From a virus, in the IMG/VR virus record IMGVR_UViG_3300025087_000044, positions 1-64,000 of that record: a stretch of 64,000 nucleotides of DNA. One strand, 5' to 3'. The position numbers and the translations under genes are program-made. A model generated the notes under the pieces. That model searched no databases. It was not told where the DNA came from and saw only the letters and a list, made by a program, of their open reading frames with translations. Positions 17,020 to 63,252 of this stretch are shown here, one piece after another (the first letter of the stretch is position 1; each line of letters starts with the position of its first letter).

Positions 17020-17050
17020 AGTTTAGGGTTTAGTATTTACTATAAACAGT

Positions 17051-17274
17051 ATATGGTATATTTTTCTGAATTATATCCAGCAAGTGCAGGCCTGCCCAAC
17101 CATCGAGGCATACCCCTCTAGGCCACTCTGCGCCCCTTGCTGACGGCCAGTAGGGCTGTCGCCCCTAAATACGGATAAGAGCCGCATTCCCGTAAGTTCG
17201 CTAGTTAAGTGGGCGTTCCTAGCCAGTATCCTGCCCTCTCGTTAATCGAAAGAGCAAGCAACTAACTCCCACAT
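17051..17274 (-). ncRNA. Unnamed structured RNA downstream of tRNA-like array (homolog of 63072..63252)
   Basis: Multiple hairpins; ordered shared blocks GTGGG, GCAGGATAC, CTAG, TTAA..AGCGA, AGCCCTA, CTGGC..CAGCAA, ACTTRCTGG, ATACCA. Confidence 0.7.
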
Positions 17275-17286
17275 GAGATTTCACAA

Positions 17287-17356
17287 GGCGATAACAGGGA
17301 CTCGAACCCTGATAGTCATCATTTACTGACATTCTAACCATTGAATCATTATCGCC
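17287..17356 (-). tRNA. tRNA-like gene resembling tRNA-Gly, aberrant anticodon arm (no clear anticodon)
   Basis: GCGATAA/TTATCGC acceptor, ATTC/GAAT D-stem, CAGGG-TTCGAGT-CCCTG T-arm; anticodon arm only GTCA/TGAC with 8-nt loop. Confidence 0.7.
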
Positions 17357-17359
17357 ACA

Positions 17360-17435
17360 TAGCAGAGGTGGGACTTGAACCCACGACATCAACCTTTTAA
17401 GAAGGCAAATGCTCTACCAACTGAGCTACGTTGCA
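17360..17435 (-). tRNA. Degenerate tRNA-like gene (possibly Lys-CTT derived)
   Basis: TAGCTCAGTTGGTAGAGC D-arm, GTGGG-TTCAAGT-CCCAC T-arm; mismatched acceptor, non-7-nt anticodon loop. Confidence 0.6.
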
Positions 17436-17509
17436 AGTCAACTGAGGGAGTCGAACCCTCGCCGAGGGTTTTGAAACCCCCACCCGTCCGCAGATGTACC
17501 GTAGTTGAC
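17436..17509 (-). tRNA. Atypical tRNA-like gene with 8-nt anticodon loop TTTCAAAA
   Basis: Perfect GTCAACT/AGTTGAC acceptor, GAGGG-TTCGACT-CCCTC T-arm, GGGGG/CCCTC stem, 3-nt variable loop, non-canonical D region. Confidence 0.6.
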
Positions 17510-17685
17510 ATACCGTCCGCCCGAGCGGTATTCCACTCGAAACGGATAGTAGAAATAGTTATTGAAAGGACTTACTACTTGAGATAGGGGCTAGACTTGG
17601 CTAGCCCCTTACATGAGGAGATTGTGGCGGGTAGCACCCAGTTTGACGACTCGCTGTTTAGGGACATGAGGTGGGCGTTAAAGGG

Positions 17686-17901
17686 TTAAACATTTTGACG
17701 CTTCACTATCCTATCCCGGTACTCCTTTCTGGCCTCGTTTACGGCCACATCCATTGAAGCTTGTGATACGCCAGCTTGATTGCACGCTTGCTTTTCGTTG
17801 CGATAGCGCGGAGATGCAAGCGTGTTAAATATCCCAATATCTTTAAAGCTGGCCGACAGAAACTGCCGAAACCGCCTGAGCTGTTGGTCACGGTCGCACA
17901 T
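17686..17901 (-). CDS. Hypothetical protein (likely start MCDRDQQ, internal to the listed 17686..18075 ORF)
   Basis: Overlaps the end of the upstream zinc-ribbon gene. Confidence 0.45.
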   Translation of the reverse strand: MCDRDQQLRRFRQFLSASFKDIGIFNTLASPRYRNEKQACNQAGVSQASMDVAVNEARKEYRDRIVKRQNV

Positions 17902-18088
17902 CTCCTTTCCTCGCTTTCTTCCAAACCAGTGTTTCAAACTTGCAAGCAAGGCAATAGGAAGCACTATAAGTATCAGTTTCAGCCAGTTCATGAAGTACCT
18001 CGCGATTGCAATTAGCGCACCTCTTCTTGCGCATGCTCGTGTACCGAATGGTTTTAGTAATCGGCTGCAGAACATCGTCTAAACTCAT
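17888..18088 (-). CDS. Small zinc-ribbon protein
   Basis: CANC...CLAC; GGAGGAAGG upstream. Confidence 0.6.
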   Translation of the reverse strand: MSLDDVLQPITKTIRYTSMRKKRCANCNREVLHELAETDTYSASYCLACKFETLVWKKARKGDVRP

Positions 18089-18101
18089 TTACCTTCCTCC
18101 T

Positions 18102-18410
18102 TTATAAATATCGTGAAACGAACGAAATCGCTATATTGGCCAGAACACTGCCTAGAAATAACGCCAGCGCGGAATACGTTGAGAACTTGGCAACGAACCC
18201 TATCTGCCATTTCTCCAGCTTCAGTACTCTTGCGTCCAGCCCTATCACGGCCGCCTTAACATCACTCACCGCGCCGAGCAATTCAACGCGATAATCATCG
18301 CGCGTCTTCTCTATGACTTCATGCTCCTTGGAATTGACCGTGATAAGATTGGTCAACCGCTCCAAGATGATGTCTGTATTGACTTTGCTATGTGTGCTTT
18401 CTTGTTCCAT
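18102..18410 (-). CDS. Putative holin-like protein (coiled coil plus C-terminal TM)
   Basis: LDARVLKLEKWQ followed by hydrophobic helix. Confidence 0.55.
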   Translation of the reverse strand: MEQESTHSKVNTDIILERLTNLITVNSKEHEVIEKTRDDYRVELLGAVSDVKAAVIGLDARVLKLEKWQIGFVAKFSTYSALALFLGSVLANIAISFVSRYL

Positions 18411-18433
18411 ACTCCCCTATATGGTTATTTAAC

Positions 18434-18698: not shown

Positions 18699-19802
18699 TT
18701 ATATTACACTTCGAGCGACCTCCCTCCACGCCTGACCGCCTGCTGTAGTTTCGCATAGACAAAGAGTCAATGTGTCATTGGCCGTCATTGAGAAATCACC
18801 CGCGCCGTTAAGCAGAATGGTTATATTAGAACCACTGGTAGCTGTGCCGTGGTCAATTACAACGCTCTCATTAGCTACAAGCACAACCGTTGCGCCATTT
18901 TGACGACCGGTACTGGCAATCAAATCAACCTTGGTCGTGCCGGTCAACTCAAACACATCGCCGTCTGATGGAATCACGATGTTTGTGGCAGAAGCGATGT
19001 CAGTACCTTGTCTGGACTGAATTGAGCCGCCGAGGGTAATATAACCGCCATACAAATCAATGTATGCTTTTTCAGTCGTTCCATTGTCATTATAGAACGA
19101 AGCAATCTTCGCGCCTGCAGTTGATAAGGCAGAGGCGCATTGAAACTTAATTGCAATTGCACTTGCTCCGTCTGCTATTCTGCCTTCAAGAATAACCACA
19201 GCAACACTCGCAGCTGTAAATTTATTATTCGCTGATACCGTCCCTGTAAATGTTGCGCTACCAGCACCGGAAATTGTAAGCCTATCAACATACGCGCCTG
19301 CAGTAGATGCTTTTGCTTGAAAAATTAAAGATGGAGAATTACTTGCTCCCTGAACAGGCAATACATACATCTGCCAGCCGACTGTTTGTGAAGTACCTCC
19401 TGTAGTTTCCCAACCTCGCGCAGTCCACATTATTGCTGGCGAAACTTGCTGAGCGCCAACAGTTGCGGCTGTGTCTGTTACCAGTGAAAGCATTGCTGAA
19501 GTAGTTGTGCCTAATGAGCTTTTTGTTAAAGTCGCCAGACCGTCCAACCAAGACACTCCCTGCACTTCGAGTTTTCCGGCAATAGCTAAATCATTCGTTG
19601 CCGCAAGTGAGTGCGCCGTTGTAACATTGCCTACCGAAACAAAGGTTTTGCCTGACGCAGAACCTTGAATGTAGCCAGCGATGGTGAAGATATCAACTGA
19701 AGCGTTGCCGAAATTAAAGCTTCCATTAACGGTTAAATCACCCGTTACCGTTAAGTCAACTACAGACAAACTTGTCCCACGAAATGAATCTTTGAATTTC
19801 AT
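18699..19802 (-). CDS. Virion structural/fibre-like protein
   Basis: Thr/Ala/Gly-rich beta protein ending WREVARS. Confidence 0.6.
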   Translation of the reverse strand: MKFKDSFRGTSLSVVDLTVTGDLTVNGSFNFGNASVDIFTIAGYIQGSASGKTFVSVGNVTTAHSLAATNDLAIAGKLEVQGVSWLDGLATLTKSSLGTTTSAMLSLVTDTAATVGAQQVSPAIMWTARGWETTGGTSQTVGWQMYVLPVQGASNSPSLIFQAKASTAGAYVDRLTISGAGSATFTGTVSANNKFTAASVAVVILEGRIADGASAIAIKFQCASALSTAGAKIASFYNDNGTTEKAYIDLYGGYITLGGSIQSRQGTDIASATNIVIPSDGDVFELTGTTKVDLIASTGRQNGATVVLVANESVVIDHGTATSGSNITILLNGAGDFSMTANDTLTLCLCETTAGGQAWREVARSVI

Positions 19803-23656: not shown

Positions 23657-24637
23657 TTAAGAACCTGTACCGTTCGACCCGAACACGAAAGCCGGGAAGC
23701 CTCGCAGAATAGCGTAGTAGAAATCAATACTGTAATCCCAGTTCTTGTTCTTGTACACTTGCTCAGGAGCGTCCAATGCCGGCCTCTCTCTAAACAATGC
23801 TTGCAAGGAGTTCTTAGCGCGCTTGGAATCGCACATGAACCAATACGCCGAGGTATCAGTACCACCCGTGCGCGTCTGCAATTTCTCCCAAGTCACCACC
23901 TTAACCTTGCCTTTCAATGGATTCGGGTCGTTATCAAATGAACCTGAAATCTTATCGGAATTGACAATCCTCAATACCTCATCTTCTTTTTCTGGAGCTA
24001 CGTAAATCGTATCCAGATTAATCGGGCGGTTATGGCCTGTAGGGTCTTTGTAAATCATTGCGTCAACTCTAGCCTTCACAATCGCCTCACGTGAAACAAC
24101 CGGATTATTGGCGCTGTTGTAACGAATGATGTTTCGGAACGTCTCAGAATTGATGTTGTTGGTATGCGAAGCTGAGAACAACGCAAGTCCATCCGGCCCG
24201 GTCGCGCCTACGCTTTCACCATACACATCTGTGTAATTAGAAGCGGAGAAGCCATTCAATAACACGTCAGCCAAAGACTGGTCAACCTTCTGGAACGCGT
24301 CTTCAGTAGCGGAACGCACCAATCCGTCAATCTGGTCGTAAAGGTCAAACAAACGCATATCCTTAGTGACGGAAACGATACCGCCGTATCTCGACTGTGT
24401 GGCAGTAATGGAGTCGCCCTGAACCACAGTAGCTTGCGGCAAGTCAGCGCCTTCAGCAACCTTCTTAATCACATCCATACCATGCAGAATCAGATAGTCA
24501 TAAGTTCTGCGGTCGGTATCCTTGATGTTAAACAACTTAAAACCTGTCATGTCTGAAACACTTGTCTTGGCCACCTCATTGAAAATCTCCTGAAGATCGT
24601 CTGTAAGGGCGGCAAAGTCTGTTGTTCGTATCGCCAT
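23657..24637 (-). CDS. Major capsid protein (Mu gpT-like)
   Basis: YGGIVSVTKDMRLFDLYD, GPDGLALFSASH, AYWF; follows scaffold and decoration genes. Confidence 0.85.
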   Translation of the reverse strand: MAIRTTDFAALTDDLQEIFNEVAKTSVSDMTGFKLFNIKDTDRRTYDYLILHGMDVIKKVAEGADLPQATVVQGDSITATQSRYGGIVSVTKDMRLFDLYDQIDGLVRSATEDAFQKVDQSLADVLLNGFSASNYTDVYGESVGATGPDGLALFSASHTNNINSETFRNIIRYNSANNPVVSREAIVKARVDAMIYKDPTGHNRPINLDTIYVAPEKEDEVLRIVNSDKISGSFDNDPNPLKGKVKVVTWEKLQTRTGGTDTSAYWFMCDSKRAKNSLQALFRERPALDAPEQVYKNKNWDYSIDFYYAILRGFPAFVFGSNGTGS

Positions 24638-28126: not shown

Positions 28127-28252
28127 TTAAACCTTGTTCACTCGCTTACATCGCTTGCACTTTATCGACACTTGATACTTCACTTCGTCAGGATTACGCT
28201 CCACCTCACACAACTTGGCTTTGCATTGTTCGCACCGTATTTCGTAGCTCAT
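28127..28252 (-). CDS. Mu Com-like zinc-finger protein (41 aa, absent from ORF track)
   Basis: MSYEIRCEQCKAKLCEVERNPDEVKYQVSIKCKRCKRVNKV; ATGA overlap with terL stop. Confidence 0.8.
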   Translation of the reverse strand: MSYEIRCEQCKAKLCEVERNPDEVKYQVSIKCKRCKRVNKV

Positions 28253-29667
28253 ACCATTCGTGTAGCGTAAATGTTTTTATGTTTCTTTTTCTTTTGCAGC
28301 GGCCGCTCGAACATCCTCACATAAGTCGAATCGAATGACATCATCAATGCGTCCGCCACGTCAGGACTCTCTATTCCATTGCGCCGCATCTCATCTTTGC
28401 TCATAATCTGCAGTCGTCCCGAAGAATCTGTTTTGTACTTAATATCCAATAACTCGCTCCAATCACCATCTTTGTCGAGTTTGCCGCCATTGTTTATCCA
28501 CTTCTTCAGCTTCCAATAGTTCTCAGCACGCCGATTGATGAACTTCGTCTGCTCCTTAGCTTGCCCGCCCAGCTTAACAGCGTTGACTCTAAAACCCTGC
28601 TCCTTAAGCCTGTCAGTACAACCGCCACCCATTCCTGTATCGTCAAGACTGACATTCTGCCAATCCACCTTATTCTCCACCGCCAATCTTATCGTAGTGC
28701 CTACGGTGCTCATCAAATCGTTATCAGAGTTCTTAGCTAGGATTGTTGCGAAATTCTCACTGCGCTTAACCCAAACGTTGAAGTTCCCACCGCCTCTGGC
28801 TATATCATGCCCGATATTCCTTGTCCCGAACTCCGCGACATCCTTCTTATCCACCAAAGCACTATCGTATTCCCTGTCTGTTATCAAATTACTCCAGCCT
28901 TTGTCATCTATCGCTGATGCTTCAGGAAACTTATTCTCGTATAACACATCGAAGAATGGCTTCTTGCGGCACTCCTCAATGTATTCTTCATTAAGCCGGC
29001 CTTCGTCAAGTCCTATCTTGTAATCAATATTAAGTTTATAAAACTTCGGGTCTCTGTAGTCCTTCAAGAAATGATTCCTTTTAAATGGATTGCCAATCTT
29101 GAAGTAAAAGTTATCCATCTTATCCCCTAACATTCGGAATATCTTCGCCTCAATGTCATCATCAATCAGAGCCGCTTCGTCCAGTACAACATTGCTTGCC
29201 CCAAACCCCATCAACGCTTCGCCGGCAGTTTGCTTGTTTCTGGAATCCGCCGACAAGATGTAGACCTCACCCATCGAACCGTCAGTGTGCTTAAATGTCA
29301 ATCGGCTCTTGCTGCGCTCTCTTCTCAAGTGCTCAAGACTTTCACCCTTCGCTATGTCCAGTTTCTGCTTGGTGTAGTCATTGTCAAAGGCATGGTCAAT
29401 GATGTAGCTCATGATAATCTTAGCCTTCTTCTCACTAGGTGCCACAATCGCCCACTTCTCAGGAAAGGTCGCTACCCTAGTAAGAACAGCCAACGCTACG
29501 GTTAAAGATTTCCCATAGCGCGTATGCGCAGCCAGCCAATTCCTTGGGTGAACTCTTCCAAATATAAGCCTAAAAATATCTTGTTGTCCTGCGGATAATT
29601 GAATTGGCTTACGTTCTTCGTCTTTATACATTGCCGCAACCATTTTCTGGACTTTTATATCACTCAT
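28249..29667 (-). CDS. terL: Terminase large subunit
   Basis: TRYGKS Walker A, VVLDEAA Walker B, IGNP, GHDIARGG, DDTGMGGG, SPDVADAL. Confidence 0.95.
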   Translation of the reverse strand: MSDIKVQKMVAAMYKDEERKPIQLSAGQQDIFRLIFGRVHPRNWLAAHTRYGKSLTVALAVLTRVATFPEKWAIVAPSEKKAKIIMSYIIDHAFDNDYTKQKLDIAKGESLEHLRRERSKSRLTFKHTDGSMGEVYILSADSRNKQTAGEALMGFGASNVVLDEAALIDDDIEAKIFRMLGDKMDNFYFKIGNPFKRNHFLKDYRDPKFYKLNIDYKIGLDEGRLNEEYIEECRKKPFFDVLYENKFPEASAIDDKGWSNLITDREYDSALVDKKDVAEFGTRNIGHDIARGGGNFNVWVKRSENFATILAKNSDNDLMSTVGTTIRLAVENKVDWQNVSLDDTGMGGGCTDRLKEQGFRVNAVKLGGQAKEQTKFINRRAENYWKLKKWINNGGKLDKDGDWSELLDIKYKTDSSGRLQIMSKDEMRRNGIESPDVADALMMSFDSTYVRMFERPLQKKKKHKNIYATRMV

Positions 29668-39134: not shown

Positions 39135-40032
39135 AATCCAGACCTGTTGGCGGAGCAGGCCAAAACCGCCTGATTAAATTTATGAAACTTAAAACACATA
39201 TCCCCTCACTGGTTTGTGCCGCGTTCTCGGCAGTAACCACTGGCAGCATGCTTGCGTATAACGTACCGCTTTGGTTAATAATCCCGATCGCTCTAGTGGG
39301 TTCTTTGTCTGTTGGTGTCGTAATGCTCATTATACTTGACTAGCCCACCTTCATGCCGCAAACTTGGAGGCCGGGGGAGAGGAAATTAACTCGATTCCTC
39401 AACAGCCTGCAAAATAACTTTACTCTACAGAACTGGCTCCTACCAACAAACAACAATGTCCAAACAATTCCTTGCACCACCACATTGAATAAAAAAATAT
39501 GATTAAATTGAAAATTGAATTTTTTGATAGAGTTTCACAAAGTGGAGAAACTGGATTTAGAAGCGCGGAAATTCAAATTCCAGATGAGGCAATGTTACTT
39601 TCTAACAAGCCAACCTTTAATGGAGAAATTTCAAACGAACGCCATCAATTTGTTATGGATGAACTCGAAAGAATAGTTAATGAAACAGAGGGTGTCAATT
39701 ATGGAGAAATTAGTGAGATTGAAAGCGATATCCCAATTAGACAAAGATTTGTAATTATAACATGTCGAAAAATTCAATAATAAAAAATCCTATGACACTT
39801 TCAGAATTAAAAAAACACTTGGAGGTGATACGTCTAAGAAATGGCGTTGATTCAGACAGAGACCATCAGGAAGTTGATGATATGCTTATCGGTTATATAA
39901 ACGATGGCGAGGTAACTGAGTTGTTTGATTCAATTGAAAAGTGGTATTCCTGACCTAATAATAATTGGAAAATAAATTAAAATAAAATCTTATGAGTAAA
40001 TTCAAAGCGGGAATGATTATCGAGAACGCTGA

Positions 40033-40062
40033 CGAGGGTTCGACTCCCTCAGTTGACTTGCA
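40033..40062 (+). repeat. Exact 30-bp inverted copy of the 3' half of the tRNA-like gene (17432..17461)
   Basis: CGAGGGTTCGACTCCCTCAGTTGACTTGCA. Confidence 0.9.
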
Positions 40063-40084
40063 CTAAATTTAATAGGAGAATAGT

Positions 40085-40243
40085 ATGACCGAAGAGCAAG
40101 AGTTTTTAGACAAAGAAATCCAAGTCTGCAATGACGAGATGGATAAGGCCATCAAGACCAGTTCCGCGGCGCAAGACGTATTGAAGTTCTACGCCCGGCG
40201 CAAAGAGTTTTTAACTAAGATACTAAATTTAATAGGAGAATAA
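40085..40243 (+). CDS. 52-aa protein flanked by duplicated ACTAAATTTAATAGGAGAATA
   Basis: MTEEQEFLDKEIQVCNDE...; AGGAG upstream. Confidence 0.55.
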   Translation: MTEEQEFLDKEIQVCNDEMDKAIKTSSAAQDVLKFYARRKEFLTKILNLIGE

Positions 40244-40244
40244 T

Positions 40245-40619
40245 ATGTCAAAATTCAAAGCGGGAATGATAATCAAGAACGCTGCAGGTAAGCGCAAGAT
40301 ACTCGGCCAGTGCGGTGAAGTGTTCTTTATTAGCGAGGAAGATGATTTTGAAACAGCAGTATCCGAGATATACACAGAAGAAGAATTGCTGAAAGTTAAT
40401 TTTAAACCCGTCGAAGAGCCGTGGAAACCTGAGAAGAACAGAGAATATATTTTTCTTGACCTCGCTGGAGAACACGCTTCTACGATTTGGATAAATGGCA
40501 AAAGCGACAATTATCTCCTCTCCATCGGCAACGTCTTTCCACCCGAGAACAACGAAGAACTCATTGCCGAGTACAAGCGCAAGTTGCAGGAGATGTTTAA
40601 GCCAGAGTCTTACAAGTAA
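40245..40619 (+). CDS. Hypothetical protein
   Basis: Its first 13 codons are duplicated at 39992-40031. Confidence 0.7.
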   Translation: MSKFKAGMIIKNAAGKRKILGQCGEVFFISEEDDFETAVSEIYTEEELLKVNFKPVEEPWKPEKNREYIFLDLAGEHASTIWINGKSDNYLLSIGNVFPPENNEELIAEYKRKLQEMFKPESYK

Positions 40620-40821: not shown

Positions 40822-41004
40822 ATGAAAAAAGGCCAACAATTGGCGTGTATATTGCGAGAACTTGCAGAAAACATTGCCATAATCAGAGACAAGGGGACTG
40901 ATTGGAGCGAATGTATGTTTGATGATATCGAAGAAGTTTGTCGTGAGTTTGACAAAAGCGATAAATTCACAACCAAAGAGAATCGAGTTAATCAAGGGAA
41001 ATGA
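40822..41004 (+). CDS. Hypothetical protein
   Basis: Ends KFTTKENRVNQGK, shared with upstream gene. Confidence 0.6.
   Translation: MKKGQQLACILRELAENIAIIRDKGTDWSECMFDDIEEVCREFDKSDKFTTKENRVNQGK
40859..40985 (+). repeat. Exact 127-bp direct repeat, copy 2; probable junction of segments A and B
   Basis: Identical to 1-127. Confidence 0.95.
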
Positions 41005-41231
41005 TTATGACAATATCAGATAAAGAATTGGGGGAAAAGCTTCTCAAGTGGATTAGGCGGTATCATCAATATTGCCATAAAGTTATGGTTGAGTTGCCCG
41101 ATGGAAACATTACAACGCAATACAAAGAAGGCGACCTTATGATATGCAAAGCTTGTAAAGATGAGATAGCTTTACTAGAAGAAGAAATAAACAAAAGAAA
41201 TAAAAAGATAATTAAAAATAGACTTGTATGA
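41001..41231 (+). CDS. Hypothetical protein, homolog of 143..379
   Basis: Near-identical translation. Confidence 0.75.
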   Translation: MIMTISDKELGEKLLKWIRRYHQYCHKVMVELPDGNITTQYKEGDLMICKACKDEIALLEEEINKRNKKIIKNRLV

Positions 41232-44843: not shown

Positions 44844-46973
44844 ATGTTTACCTATAAAAAAGATGGATTCAATGTTCCAGTCAAAAGTTGGATACCAGAA
44901 AAAGATTATTATTCTGACGTTGCTATGGTTGAACAGTGCGAGAATTTGGCAAGGTTGCCTTTTTCTTTCGGACACGTTGTCTTGTGTCCTGACGGACATG
45001 TTGGTTTCGGTTGCCCAATCGGTTCAGTCGTTGCAACTAAAGCTGTAATAATTCCCAATGTTTGTGGGGTAGATATTGGAGCTGTAGATAGGGATACTGA
45101 GATTTTAACTAAAAGTGGATGGATTACTATAGATAAATATAACAACATTGATGATGTCTTAATTTATGATAATTACAAGCAAACTTCCTTTTTTAGCAAG
45201 CCATTGTTGTATATTGTAAAACCTTGTGAAGATTTTACGGAATACAAAAGCAAATATGGATTAGACCAGGTTTTGAGTGACGAGCATAGAATGTTGGTTT
45301 ATGAAGGGTATGGAAAAGATAGAACAAACAATACTTATTTTTGTAAGGACTTTAGGGAAAAATTATCAAAATTAAAAAAACAAGATTATTATTCAGTAAG
45401 AACGACGTTCGCAACAAATGAAAAGGGAATAAAATTAACAGATGAGCAGATAGCTATTATGGTAATGGTTTCTGCTGATGGTCATATTAGAAAACAGTCT
45501 AGTGTATATACAAATGTAGAGATGCATTTTAAAAAGAGTAGAAAAATAAATCGTTGTAAGGTTTTGTTGAATAAAGCAAAAGTTAGTTTTAAAGAATATG
45601 ACCACAGTGATAAGACAAAGTCAATAATCTTTAAGTTAGATTGGGAGTGTAAGAAAGAATTAACTGCTTTATATCTATGTAATCAGCATCAGGCAAAAGT
45701 TGTTTTTGACGAGTATTTGTATTGGGATGGAACCATTGATAAAAAAAGAAATCATAAAATGTATTCCACAACAAAGAAAGTAAACGCCGATGTTGTTCAG
45801 TATATATGTGCCGTGAATGGAGTTAGGGCTGGCATACATCTTCAAAGTTATAAAAATGAAAATTGGAATGATTCATATAGCGTGTATCAAACGAGAAACG
45901 AATATGTTGGATTCAGTCGTCCCCAAAAAATAAAGATACCAAACGGTAACAAGTATTGTTTTGTTGTTGAAACTGGATATTTTGTTGCTAGAAGGAATAA
46001 CAAGATATTTGTTACTGGAAACTGTGGAATGATTGCGGTTAAAACATCTCTTACTGAATTGGACAGAGAAACATTAAAAAAGATTCTTGGTAATATAAGA
46101 CAAACGATTCCTGTAGGATTCGAACACCACAAAACAGACCAAGACATTACCCTCATGCCGAATTATGGGTTAGGAGCAGGTGGCGAAATAACAGGAAGAG
46201 AGTACATGTCAGCCCTAAGGCAGATTGGAACACTTGGTGGAGGTAATCATTTTATCGAAATCCAAAAAGGAGATGATGGGCATATCTGGATAATGATTCA
46301 TTCGGGTTCGAGAAACTTAGGAAAGCAAGTTGCTGATTATTATAACAAAGTCGCTATTGAGTTAAACGAAAAATATCACTCCTCAGTACCTAATGAATGG
46401 CAGTTAGCGTTTTTGCCTGTTGACAGTCAAGAAGGACAGAATTATATTTCCGAGATGAATTATTGCGTTGAGTTTGCGTTGGCTAATAGACAGTTAATGA
46501 TGAGCAGGATAATTGATATTTTCTGCAAGCATACAGAATTGGCTGCTAAGGGTTGGGAACCGCCAATCAATATAGCTCACAATTATGCCAAGCAAGAAAA
46601 TCATTACGGACAAAATTTATGGGTTCACAGAAAAGGAGCAACGTTAGCGCAAGACGGAACAATAGGAATAATCCCTGGCTCACAAGGTTCAAGTTCGTTC
46701 ATCGTTAAGGGCAAGGGAAGTAAAGAATCATTTAATTCATGTTCACATGGTGCAGGAAGGCTTATGAGCAGAACCAAAGCCATGGCCACTCTTAACCTTG
46801 AAGATGAGATAAAGAAACTTGACGACCAAGGTATTTTGCATGCAATCAGAGGCAAGAAAGACCTTGATGAGGCAAGCGGTTCTTATAAGAACGTAGAAGA
46901 AGTAATGAACAATCAATCTGATTTAGTGGATATTTTAGTAAAATTAAGCCCAATGGGTGTCGTGAAAGGATAG
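44844..46973 (+). CDS. rtcB: RtcB RNA ligase precursor containing an intein
   Basis: PDGH.G.G.PIG, GVDIG/CG, GTLGGGNHFIE, HSGSR, HNY, HRKGAT, IPGSQG, SCSHGAGR, DEA. Confidence 0.95.
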   Translation: MFTYKKDGFNVPVKSWIPEKDYYSDVAMVEQCENLARLPFSFGHVVLCPDGHVGFGCPIGSVVATKAVIIPNVCGVDIGAVDRDTEILTKSGWITIDKYNNIDDVLIYDNYKQTSFFSKPLLYIVKPCEDFTEYKSKYGLDQVLSDEHRMLVYEGYGKDRTNNTYFCKDFREKLSKLKKQDYYSVRTTFATNEKGIKLTDEQIAIMVMVSADGHIRKQSSVYTNVEMHFKKSRKINRCKVLLNKAKVSFKEYDHSDKTKSIIFKLDWECKKELTALYLCNQHQAKVVFDEYLYWDGTIDKKRNHKMYSTTKKVNADVVQYICAVNGVRAGIHLQSYKNENWNDSYSVYQTRNEYVGFSRPQKIKIPNGNKYCFVVETGYFVARRNNKIFVTGNCGMIAVKTSLTELDRETLKKILGNIRQTIPVGFEHHKTDQDITLMPNYGLGAGGEITGREYMSALRQIGTLGGGNHFIEIQKGDDGHIWIMIHSGSRNLGKQVADYYNKVAIELNEKYHSSVPNEWQLAFLPVDSQEGQNYISEMNYCVEFALANRQLMMSRIIDIFCKHTELAAKGWEPPINIAHNYAKQENHYGQNLWVHRKGATLAQDGTIGIIPGSQGSSSFIVKGKGSKESFNSCSHGAGRLMSRTKAMATLNLEDEIKKLDDQGILHAIRGKKDLDEASGSYKNVEEVMNNQSDLVDILVKLSPMGVVKG
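45081..46022 (+). mobile_element. 314-aa intein starting with Ala, with LAGLIDADG-type endonuclease region
   Basis: AVDRDTEILTKSGW...SDEHRM...VSADGH...YWDG...YCFVVETGYFVARRNNKIFVTGN/C. Confidence 0.9.
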
Positions 46974-55980: not shown

Positions 55981-56106
55981 ATGGACGATTACGAAAAAGC
56001 AAAAAGACAGCAAAAAAAAGAAGAGAGCAGTCCTACTGTTATGTTTAAGGATTTATTAACCCAAGAAGAATTGGATATGTTGAGTAAGTTCTTTTCAGAA
56101 GAGTAG
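55981..56106 (+). CDS. 41-aa protein, homolog of 31653..31784; 3' end overlaps tRNA-Ile
   Basis: MDDYEKAKRQQKKEESSPTVMFKDLLTQEELDMLSKFFSEE. Confidence 0.7.
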   Translation: MDDYEKAKRQQKKEESSPTVMFKDLLTQEELDMLSKFFSEE

Positions 56107-56169
56107 CTCAGTTGGTAGAGTGTCCGCCTGATACGCGGAGTGTCGCTGGTTCGAGTCCCAGCTCTTCTA
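56097..56169 (+). tRNA. tRNA-Ile(GAT), T-stem slightly out of register
   Basis: AGAAGAG/CTCTTCT acceptor; TCCGC-CTGATAC-GCGGA. Confidence 0.88.
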
Positions 56170-56182
56170 TAAACAAAAAACT

Positions 56183-62997: not shown

Positions 62998-63069
62998 GCG
63001 TCAATAATTCATGGGTTAGAATCTGAGATTTCCAATCTCGGTAAAAGGGTTCAAGTCCCTTTTGACGCT
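62998..63069 (+). tRNA. tRNA-Gly(TCC)
   Basis: GCGTCAA/TTGACGC; TGAGA-TTTCCAA-TCTCG; U73. Confidence 0.92.
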
Positions 63070-63071
63070 TC

Positions 63072-63252
63072 GTGGGTATCCATGAGGTTGTACGCAGGAT
63101 ACATCTAGCACTCCAATTAAAAGCGACTGATGAGAGAGTAACCCTCTCGAAACTCATGAGAGTCTCGCGGAGTAGCCCTAGGAGTGGAATAACTGGCTAC
63201 CAGCAACCTCTTTAGCAAATAGTACCTTACACAACTTACTGGCTAATACCAC
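63072..63252 (+). ncRNA. Unnamed structured RNA downstream of tRNA-Gly (homolog of 17051..17274)
   Basis: Shared ordered blocks and covarying helices. Confidence 0.7.
63123..63168 (+). ncRNA. Type I hammerhead ribozyme, predicted cleavage after C63164
   Basis: GCGA-CTGATGA-GAGAG(TAACC)CTCTC-GAA-ACTC(ATGA)GAGT-C-TCGC. Confidence 0.92.

Follow-up and report, generated by a model that had tools for sequence, protein, structure and literature searches.

Three abutting tRNA-like genes with irregular anticodon arms in a non-coding phage cassette: possible RNA-processing sites

On the minus strand of the IMG/VR virus contig IMGVR_UViG_3300025087_000044 (99,113 bases, linear class, with a CheckV completeness estimate of 81%), three tRNA-shaped genes, here called TL1, TL2 and TL3, abut one another between positions 17509 and 17287, and in none of them is there a canonical anticodon arm, i.e. 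a 5-bp stem closing a 7-nt loop with U33 and a purine at position 37. The elements are derived from tRNA genes and almost certainly take no part in decoding; most likely they are relics that, if they are kept at all, are kept as sites for cutting RNA. More specifically, it is proposed, tentatively and at somewhat below an even chance, that they are non-decoding tRNA derivatives of which at least TL1 and TL3 still serve as recognition sites for RNase P and RNase Z; a reading of all three as plain relics is nearly as likely. No new principle is involved, and the value of the locus lies rather in its belonging to a natural pair, made up of a canonical cassette and a nearly identical aberrant one. 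The window analysed comprises 64,000 nt (positions 1 to 64,000 of the record), and all positions given below, including those that lie beyond it, are numbered on the record.

The three genes, separated by spacers of 1–3 nt, lie within a 0.67-kb non-coding cassette, this being the 665-nt gap on the minus strand between a gene for a 129-aa protein (18075-17686) and a gene for a 75-aa protein (17019-16792). Reading along the minus strand, there is first a hairpin just after the 129-aa gene (17587..17608; 8-bp stem, no U tract), then a leader hairpin, predicted in a fold of the whole region, that ends 4 nt before TL1 (17513..17545), then TL1 itself (17437..17509), TL2 (17359..17436) and TL3 (17286..17356), and then a structured ncRNA of about 190 nt, here called ncRNA A (17099..17285), which begins 11 nt after TL3 with a 16-nt motif also found in the sister cassette described below. 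The cassette closes with a sigma-70-like promoter for the downstream 75-aa and M23 peptidase genes (17070..17098; TGGGCA, 17 nt, TATAAT), found in a promoter scan that yielded no promoter upstream of TL1 that could be its own. That three abutting tRNA-like genes are present had been noted in a first-pass annotation of this DNA, and ARAGORN and Rfam bear this out. The same annotation had named assembly errors in the loops as one circumstance that would undo its interpretation, but Logan contigs from four runs with four study codes (groundwater and soil) reproduce positions 17031-17461 or 17031-17571 with 0 differences and 0 gaps, so that the odd loop lengths and indels are not assembly errors. 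The idea that sequencing or assembly mistakes in otherwise ordinary tRNA genes might have produced these loops was a possibility a priori, and the 99-kb record as a whole does look composite (see below), but in the face of such exact agreement it is scarcely credible.

What the three elements have in common is the T-arm, which in each case has a 5-bp stem, the G53-C61 pair and a loop of the form UUCRANY (GGTTCGACTCCC in TL1, GGTTCAAGTCCC in TL2 and GGTTCGAGTCCC in TL3), just as the first-pass annotation had described. Its statements that two of the three keep perfect acceptor stems and that none combines a clean 5-bp anticodon stem with a 7-nt loop are equally sound: acceptor pairing is 7/7 in TL1, 7/7 in TL3 and 4/7 in TL2, while the loops have 8 nt in TL1, an ambiguous 5, 7 or 9 nt in TL2, and 6 or 8 nt in TL3. 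Scoring with ARAGORN, which it had suggested as a check, retrieves TL2 and TL3 at default settings, but TL1 at the relaxed threshold alone. Beyond this the elements diverge, the defect being different in each: in TL1 it affects the D-arm and core together with the anticodon loop, in TL2 the acceptor stem together with the loop, and in TL3 the loop only. For the Rfam comparisons that follow, the gathering scores are 29 bits for tRNA (RF00005), 47 bits for tmRNA and 69 bits for the bacterial Y RNA family YrlA.

TL1 (17509-17437) is reported by ARAGORN in its relaxed mode as tRNA-?(SeC|Leu) with a 4-nt anticodon, UCAA, in an 8-nt loop, UUUCAAAA, closed by a 5-bp stem. All 7 acceptor pairs are present, the variable loop has 3 nt, and the minimum-free-energy fold is cloverleaf-like. 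The D-arm and core are aberrant: position 8 is A rather than U, the D stem contains a G.G mismatch, and the connectors are odd as well, there being one nucleotide too few before the D-arm and one too many after it. TL1 falls below the Rfam threshold for tRNA, for which no match is reported, and what survives clan competition is a partial tmRNA match of 19.6 bits covering the anticodon stem and T-arm. An identity as tmRNA was nevertheless rejected, since ARAGORN finds none and the score compares with a gathering score of 47. TL1 occupies the position held by tRNA-Phe in the sister cassette, and the first 5 and last 5 acceptor bases are common to both; otherwise no recognisable relative was found, either in a scan of IMG/VR with a TL1-specific pattern or in a comparison of the 21-nt 3' end with 185,579 species genomes. 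A role of this 21-nt 3' end as the core of a phage attP site was considered and dropped: it has no exact match in those genomes or in IMG/VR, and without a bacterial match in the species collection it is not an obvious attachment core.

For TL2 (17436-17359) the default ARAGORN call is 'tRNA-Stop' with the anticodon UUA, and the Rfam tRNA score of 39.7 bits is above the gathering score. U8 and the D-arm are canonical, as is the T-arm already described, and the damage lies in the acceptor stem, where 4 of 7 positions pair and two of the 3 non-pairs are adjacent. In the register chosen by ARAGORN the anticodon arm has a 7-nt loop, UCUUAAA, with C33 and an imperfect stem containing a U.U pair, whereas in the minimum-free-energy fold there is a 5-bp anticodon stem with a 5-nt loop and no acceptor stem, so that TL2 on its own does not fold as a cloverleaf. 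Its best annotated matches are phage tRNA-Lys(CUU) genes (81% identity, E = 9e-6), in which the anticodon arm is 3 nt shorter, and it is 74% identical to the record's own tRNA-Ile. The 5' acceptor strand, for its part, aligns with the 3' trailer of the tRNA-Phe of the sister cassette. As to ancestry, TL2 descends from a Lys/Ile-type tRNA, the 5' acceptor strand having been lost or replaced. The tRNA-Ile(GAU) in question (56096-56170) has irregularities of its own: its T loop has 8 nt, the acceptor stem has a C.A mismatch at its top, and the gene and the end of an ORF overlap. Contigs of abundant bacteria (depth 90-350) from the same samples also align to the body of TL2 (17369-17429), the alignments having some 6 mismatches and 5 gaps; the sequences concerned are normal bacterial tRNAs with the same type of D-arm and T-arm, and give no usable clue to the host.

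TL3 (17356-17286) is the most tRNA-like of the three by Rfam score (RF00005, 46.3 bits) and is called by ARAGORN at default settings, as 'tRNA-???' with a 2-nt anticodon and a 6-nt loop. It folds as a cloverleaf at minimum free energy; its acceptor, D and T arms are canonical, U8 is present, and the 7/7 acceptor pairs become 8 if G-1:C73 is counted. The anticodon arm can be drawn either as a 4-bp stem with an 8-nt loop, GUAAAUGA, or as 5 pairs, including a G.A, with a 6-nt loop. The first-pass annotation had pointed to its likeness to the canonical tRNA-Gly(UCC) on the plus strand at 62998..63069 and to the same placing of both relative to an ncRNA, and the alignment confirms this. Outside the anticodon and variable regions the two genes agree at 39 of 49 positions, and each of the three differences in stems, two of them in acceptor pairs and one in a T-stem pair, is compensated; within those regions there are 8 matches in 22, so that 14/22 positions differ there as against 10/49 elsewhere (Fisher p = 0.0008). 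Each of the two genes also has a related ncRNA 11–13 nt downstream. Taken together, these comparisons indicate that TL3 is descended from tRNA-Gly, and since its differences fall mostly in the anticodon and variable regions while its stems are compensated, they fit selection on the body of a tRNA rather than on decoding, although the compensated changes may predate the loss of its status as a working tRNA.

The first-pass annotation had gone further, suggesting for all three elements that selection keeps the elbow and acceptor but not decoding, and that they may therefore be processing punctuation for the ncRNA or decoys for host anticodon nucleases. For TL3 the suggested selection is supported, given the distribution of differences and the compensated stems, but as a general rule it does not: the acceptor stem of TL2 is broken, and TL1 has A8, a G.G mismatch in its D stem and odd connectors, which means that damage is not confined to the anticodon arms.

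Searches for the whole arrangement elsewhere, using flank patterns in IMG/VR and JGI metagenomes and TL1- and TL3-specific patterns in IMG/VR, gave no relative with all three genes, and BLAST gave no related locus in GenBank phages. What the flank and TL pattern scans of IMG/VR and JGI metagenomes did return was solely a pair of contigs (L004/G002 and L005/G001) carrying a sister cassette, copy B, next to a 129-aa gene with 98–100% protein identity to the one here. Both leader hairpins recur in copy B (92% identical), as does the promoter (95–96%), and its flanks are 92–96% identical overall to those of the present cassette, copy A; its interior comprises a single canonical tRNA-Phe(GAA) with a score of 59.9 bits and, after it, another version of the ncRNA. 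The segment that has been swapped extends from 17505, inside the 5' acceptor strand of TL1, to 17097, just before the promoter, which forms its right edge with the joint between the two forms at 17097, and it measures 407 nt here as against 314 nt in copy B. In the hairpin at 17587..17608 two double changes distinguish copy A from copy B, G-C to U-A and G-C to A-U, while in the leader hairpin at 17513..17545 (92–95% conserved in copy B) there is one C-to-U change, with the pairing kept as G.U. Because changes between the copies are compensatory in the flanking hairpins, this non-coding flank is under selection at the RNA level. The two forms have similar depths in three runs (13.4 and 14.9, 7.5 and 7.0, and 9.2 and 7.3). 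They amount to a natural experiment in which cassettes that are nearly identical, but hold a canonical tRNA in one case and three non-decoders in the other, occur together in the same samples. In the tRNA-Phe(GAA) of copy B (L005:357-430, beyond 99113) the near-universal U33 is replaced by C33, the loop being CCGAAGA; this could be a change that allows escape from an anticodon nuclease.

Initially the tRNA-Phe contigs were regarded as alleles in related phages, but this idea was dropped because one of them, G002, joins the right end of the record to them. G002 matches that right end (97900-99113) with 100% identity and the first 8.6 kb of G001 with 99.86%, implying that the record continues directly into the tRNA-Phe cassette; the right end (98570-99113) also repeats positions 17884-18427 in inverted orientation at 96% identity. 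Together with the tRNA-Gly unit at 62998-63252 there are therefore three copies of the unit (A, B and the latter), and in all three a tRNA or tRNA-like gene stands 11–31 nt upstream of a related ncRNA, ncRNA A having blocks in common with its counterpart in copy B and, in part, with 63070-63252. No Rfam family matches ncRNA A, whether theta/HDV-like or another of the known ribozymes. Within the tRNA-Gly unit, hammerhead core motifs (CUGAUGA, GAAA and GUC, with three stems) can be made out by eye at 63109-63173, with no match to an Rfam hammerhead family at E values up to 10.

Among syntenic relatives of the cassette-bearing part of the record, the closest is a 38.6-kb genome (G003), in which the portal is 46%, a capsid-region protein 71% and the tail proteins 47–55% identical. 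At the cassette site G003 has a 10-nt junction leading from a 121-aa gene to a 70-aa gene. There is no tRNA at the corresponding site in any of 13 related loci, and none anywhere in three complete relatives. To judge by these comparisons the cassette is an insertion, placed between a pair of genes for small membrane proteins and the M23-peptidase and tail genes of the late operon of a phage of about 40 kb. The 102-aa and 129-aa proteins encoded upstream each have one hydrophobic helix (read by eye), and this, with an M23 peptidase downstream, places the cassette in a lysis-type region; the 129-aa protein has a single distant homologue. Pieces of the locus have evidently also moved by illegitimate recombination, since an exact 30-nt copy of the TL1/TL2 junction (the T-arm and 3' acceptor strand of TL1 plus the first 5 nt of TL2) is found on the plus strand at 40033..40062. 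This copy lies within a recombination scar (39993-40290) in which the first 13 codons of a gene are duplicated, the first copy of the gene start being fused to the 30-nt fragment; a 52-aa ORF follows, bracketed by a repeated ribosome-binding region.

Some care is needed with any claim that features of the 99-kb record belong to the same genome. There are two different head modules, the first with TerL at 28249-29667 (minus strand) and a capsid-region gene at 23657-24637, the second with TerL at 64461-66098, a portal near 82.5–84.7 kb and a protease/capsid gene at 84.7–87.4 kb; the G+C content drops from about 0.44 to about 0.36 near 38–42 kb; and the sequence at 1-358 recurs at 40859-41222 with 92% identity. 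The relatives of the first module have complete genomes of 37–40 kb that carry terminal repeats. The two modules, the step in G+C and the end repeats imply that the record is probably composite, consisting of a phage of about 41 kb (roughly 1–40.9 kb, with TL1 to TL3) and part of a larger phage (40.9–99.1 kb), to which the tRNA-Cys, tRNA-Ile, tRNA-Gly, tRNA-Phe and RtcB genes would then probably belong. Alternatively, the record may stem from a co-integrate of about 122 kb, in agreement with the CheckV figure taken as 81% of 122 kb. The RtcB RNA ligase is encoded at 44844-46973 as part of a 709-aa protein in which it is fused to a PhoH-like ATPase region.

Whether anything in the record calls for unusual decoding can be asked of the genes themselves. 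Under the standard code 11 the coding density is 0.85–1.0, with the same long ORFs, and stop-codon recoding was rejected in that reading any of the stops as sense repairs no genes. TAA is the stop codon of 34 of the 46 genes in 1–40.9 kb (and of 43 of the 77 in the other part of the record), so that an efficient UAA-reading tRNA would be harmful. No read-through gene was found, as same-frame neighbours each have their own start codon; one candidate, TAA read-through between a 116-aa and a 752-aa gene, was discarded because an ATG belonging to the second gene lies 4 codons past the stop. Nor were any +1 targets or split genes found in a search covering open stretches of at least 40–60 codons and 81% of the genome: every coding-strand +1 junction has a start codon, and there is no start-less continuation after a four-base read. 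An argument against decoding based on the anticodon arms being predicted to zip up into tetraloops was abandoned, the canonical tRNA-Gly being predicted to zip up in the same way.

These results bear directly on the possibility that the elements are working tRNAs with enlarged loops, TL1 (UU-UCAA-AA) reading UUGA, UGAA or a similar four-base codon and TL3 a different one, for the purpose of +1 frameshifting or stop bypass. The loop of TL1 has the layout of a classical +1 suppressor, with U32, U33, four bases, A37 and A38 on a 5-bp stem, and the acceptor and T arms are perfect; an 8-nt loop with an extra anticodon base is found in TL3 as well, though only if its G.A pair is open. Set against this, U8 is missing from TL1 and its D stem is mismatched, TL2 is unable to form an acceptor stem, and TL3 lacks C35 and C36, which GlyRS requires according to established identity rules. 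The search just described, moreover, revealed no pair of genes in the 99-kb record that would need a +1 shift, and there is no read-through candidate. Known +1 frameshift-suppressor tRNAs with 8-nt anticodon loops (sufD, SufA6, SufB2 and SufJ; PMC4238358, 10.1101/2020.12.31.424971) resemble TL1 in having U33, four bases and a purine at 37, but they are point-insertion mutants of normal tRNAs with known targets, whereas TL1 has an abnormal core and no target was found for it. Working decoders of this kind are accordingly considered decidedly unlikely. Less probable again is that the elements are decoys or inhibitors of host nucleases that target tRNAs (of the PrrC, PARIS or retron-effector types), bound by them but not productively cut. 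It is true that TL2 has a tRNA-Lys-type body, tRNA-Lys being a frequent target, that the sister tRNA-Phe carries C33, and that RtcB is encoded in the record, but the RtcB gene is in the portion of the record that is probably from a different phage, and nothing here ties the elements to a defence system. There are precedents in phage tRNAs whose altered anticodon loops counter tRNA-cleaving defences (PMC10264068, PMC11555353, PMC11464382), and these share with the present elements the property of being phage-encoded with anticodon loops unlike those of the host; however, the published cases are functional replacement tRNAs, not decoys, and they retain both a 7-nt loop and the ability to decode. 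A broader conjecture would have TL1, and perhaps TL3, as either natural enlarged-loop tRNAs (for four-base codons or UGA bypass) or tRNA mimics that jam host tRNA-targeting nucleases, in a small groundwater phage possibly infecting Patescibacteria; this is itself quite unlikely, and under it the C33 tRNA-Phe of the sister cassette would be a second solution to the same pressure.

A stronger competitor, though still somewhat unlikely taken alone, is that TL1 to TL3 are plain pseudogenes, functionless debris of recombination in a hyper-recombinogenic tRNA cassette, surviving only because the insertion is recent. Much of what has been described would be expected on such a view: the defects differ from element to element, the 5' acceptor strand of TL2 aligns with the trailer of the sister tRNA-Phe, as though a tRNA truncated at its 5' end had been pasted in, a scrap of the TL1/TL2 junction has ended up within a duplicated gene start at a distance of 22 kb, HNH homing nucleases abound in the record, and all three loops are A/T runs and hence prone to slippage, while the closest syntenic relative is without the cassette and three complete relatives are without any tRNA. 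Harder to accommodate are that in TL1 and TL3 no pair has been lost from the acceptor, T or anticodon stems, that the differences in TL3 are non-randomly concentrated in one arm, and that useless DNA is quickly shed by small phage genomes. If the elements do turn out to be relics, they would serve as a caution with regard to claims of four-base-decoding phage tRNAs.

The preferred reading, that the elements act as cutting sites, is supported by the tRNA scores of TL2 and TL3 and by the cloverleafs of TL1 and TL3 with their perfect acceptor and T stems. It also draws on the clustering of the differences of TL3 in its anticodon and variable regions, on the selection for RNA structure seen in the flanking hairpins, on the results on recoding, read-through and +1 targets, and on the exact agreement of contigs from four runs. 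We infer that the cassette, with its two leader hairpins, tRNA-like genes, structured ncRNA and promoter, would be transcribed together with the late genes, and that the intact stacks of acceptor and T-arm in TL1 and TL3 would be recognised by host RNase P and RNase Z; CCA is not encoded in any tRNA gene of the record, which points to the RNase Z route. Cleavage at TL1 and TL3 would then sever the upstream message and free the downstream ncRNA with a defined 5' end, and as the genes abut with spacers of 1–3 nt, one cut would finish one element and start the next. The layout is what one would expect of such a handle, TL3 ending 11 nt before the start motif of ncRNA A and the same arrangement recurring at 62998-63252 and in copy B. 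As decoding is dispensable for cutting, the anticodon loops may, it is proposed, have drifted by indels in their A/T runs. Against cutting sites it must be said that the broken acceptor of TL2 and the odd core of TL1 look like ordinary decay, that the locus may exist chiefly to supply tRNA, given the fully canonical tRNA-Phe of the sister cassette, and that the promoter scan gave TL1 no promoter of its own. An ordinary tRNA-Phe in the same position is compatible with the notion that processing asks for no more than something shaped like a tRNA, and no less so with simple replacement and decay.

For several aspects of such cutting there are known parallels. In the tRNA region of phage T4, abutting tRNA genes and the small RNAs C and D are released by host tRNA-processing enzymes. 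The likeness lies in tightly packed genes without encoded CCA beside small structured RNAs of unknown function, all on one transcript in T4; the difference is that the T4 tRNAs are canonical decoders, whereas all three elements of the present locus have an abnormal anticodon loop and one is without an acceptor stem. Closer in principle are mascRNA, from the 3' end of MALAT1, and the tRNA-like genes of murine gammaherpesvirus 68 (MHV68) that are fused to pre-miRNAs, which are tRNA look-alikes that are not aminoacylated and are cut by RNase P and RNase Z. In these an intact acceptor/T-arm is combined with a degenerate anticodon arm, and the cut sets the end of a neighbouring ncRNA; the present locus would, by analogy, work in the same way, although those examples are from eukaryotes and an animal virus while the cleavage of the phage locus is a proposal. 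We know of no example of a tRNA-like processing handle in a bacterial phage. If TL1 to TL3 are kept as cutting sites they would thus be the counterpart in a bacterial virus of the tRNA-like handles that release ncRNAs in animal cells and in a herpesvirus, and it would follow that aberrant phage 'tRNA genes' flagged in annotation can be signals for RNA processing rather than translation factors. A further comparison can be made with the theta (HDV-like) ribozymes found next to phage tRNAs and thought to act in tRNA 3' processing (PMC10879173): these too are structured RNAs directly downstream of a phage tRNA, but they lie within 5 nt of it and have some 50–60 nt, unlike ncRNA A with its roughly 190 nt and no match to an HDV-like family. 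Lastly, YrlA, a bacterial Y RNA, is a tRNA mimic bound by the Ro protein Rsr (PMC4201824), and a weak Rfam match to it spans the T-arm of TL1 and the D-arm of TL2; at 29.1 bits this is far below the gathering score of 69, no Ro gene (TROVE, PF05731) is present in the record while positive controls were detected, and the Ro/Y-RNA idea was rejected.

Two observations on the surrounding phage group may be added. In G003 there is a tRNA-Met(CAT) with an ORF-free stretch of about 270 nt behind it (L029:1501-1842), and the two together may be another unit of tRNA plus ncRNA within the group. In the present record the C-terminal part (about 105 residues) of a 367-aa protein encoded at 18699-19802 is 60–75% identical across many phage contigs of 36–47 kb, some of which have been binned with Patescibacteria MAGs, and this hints at the host group.
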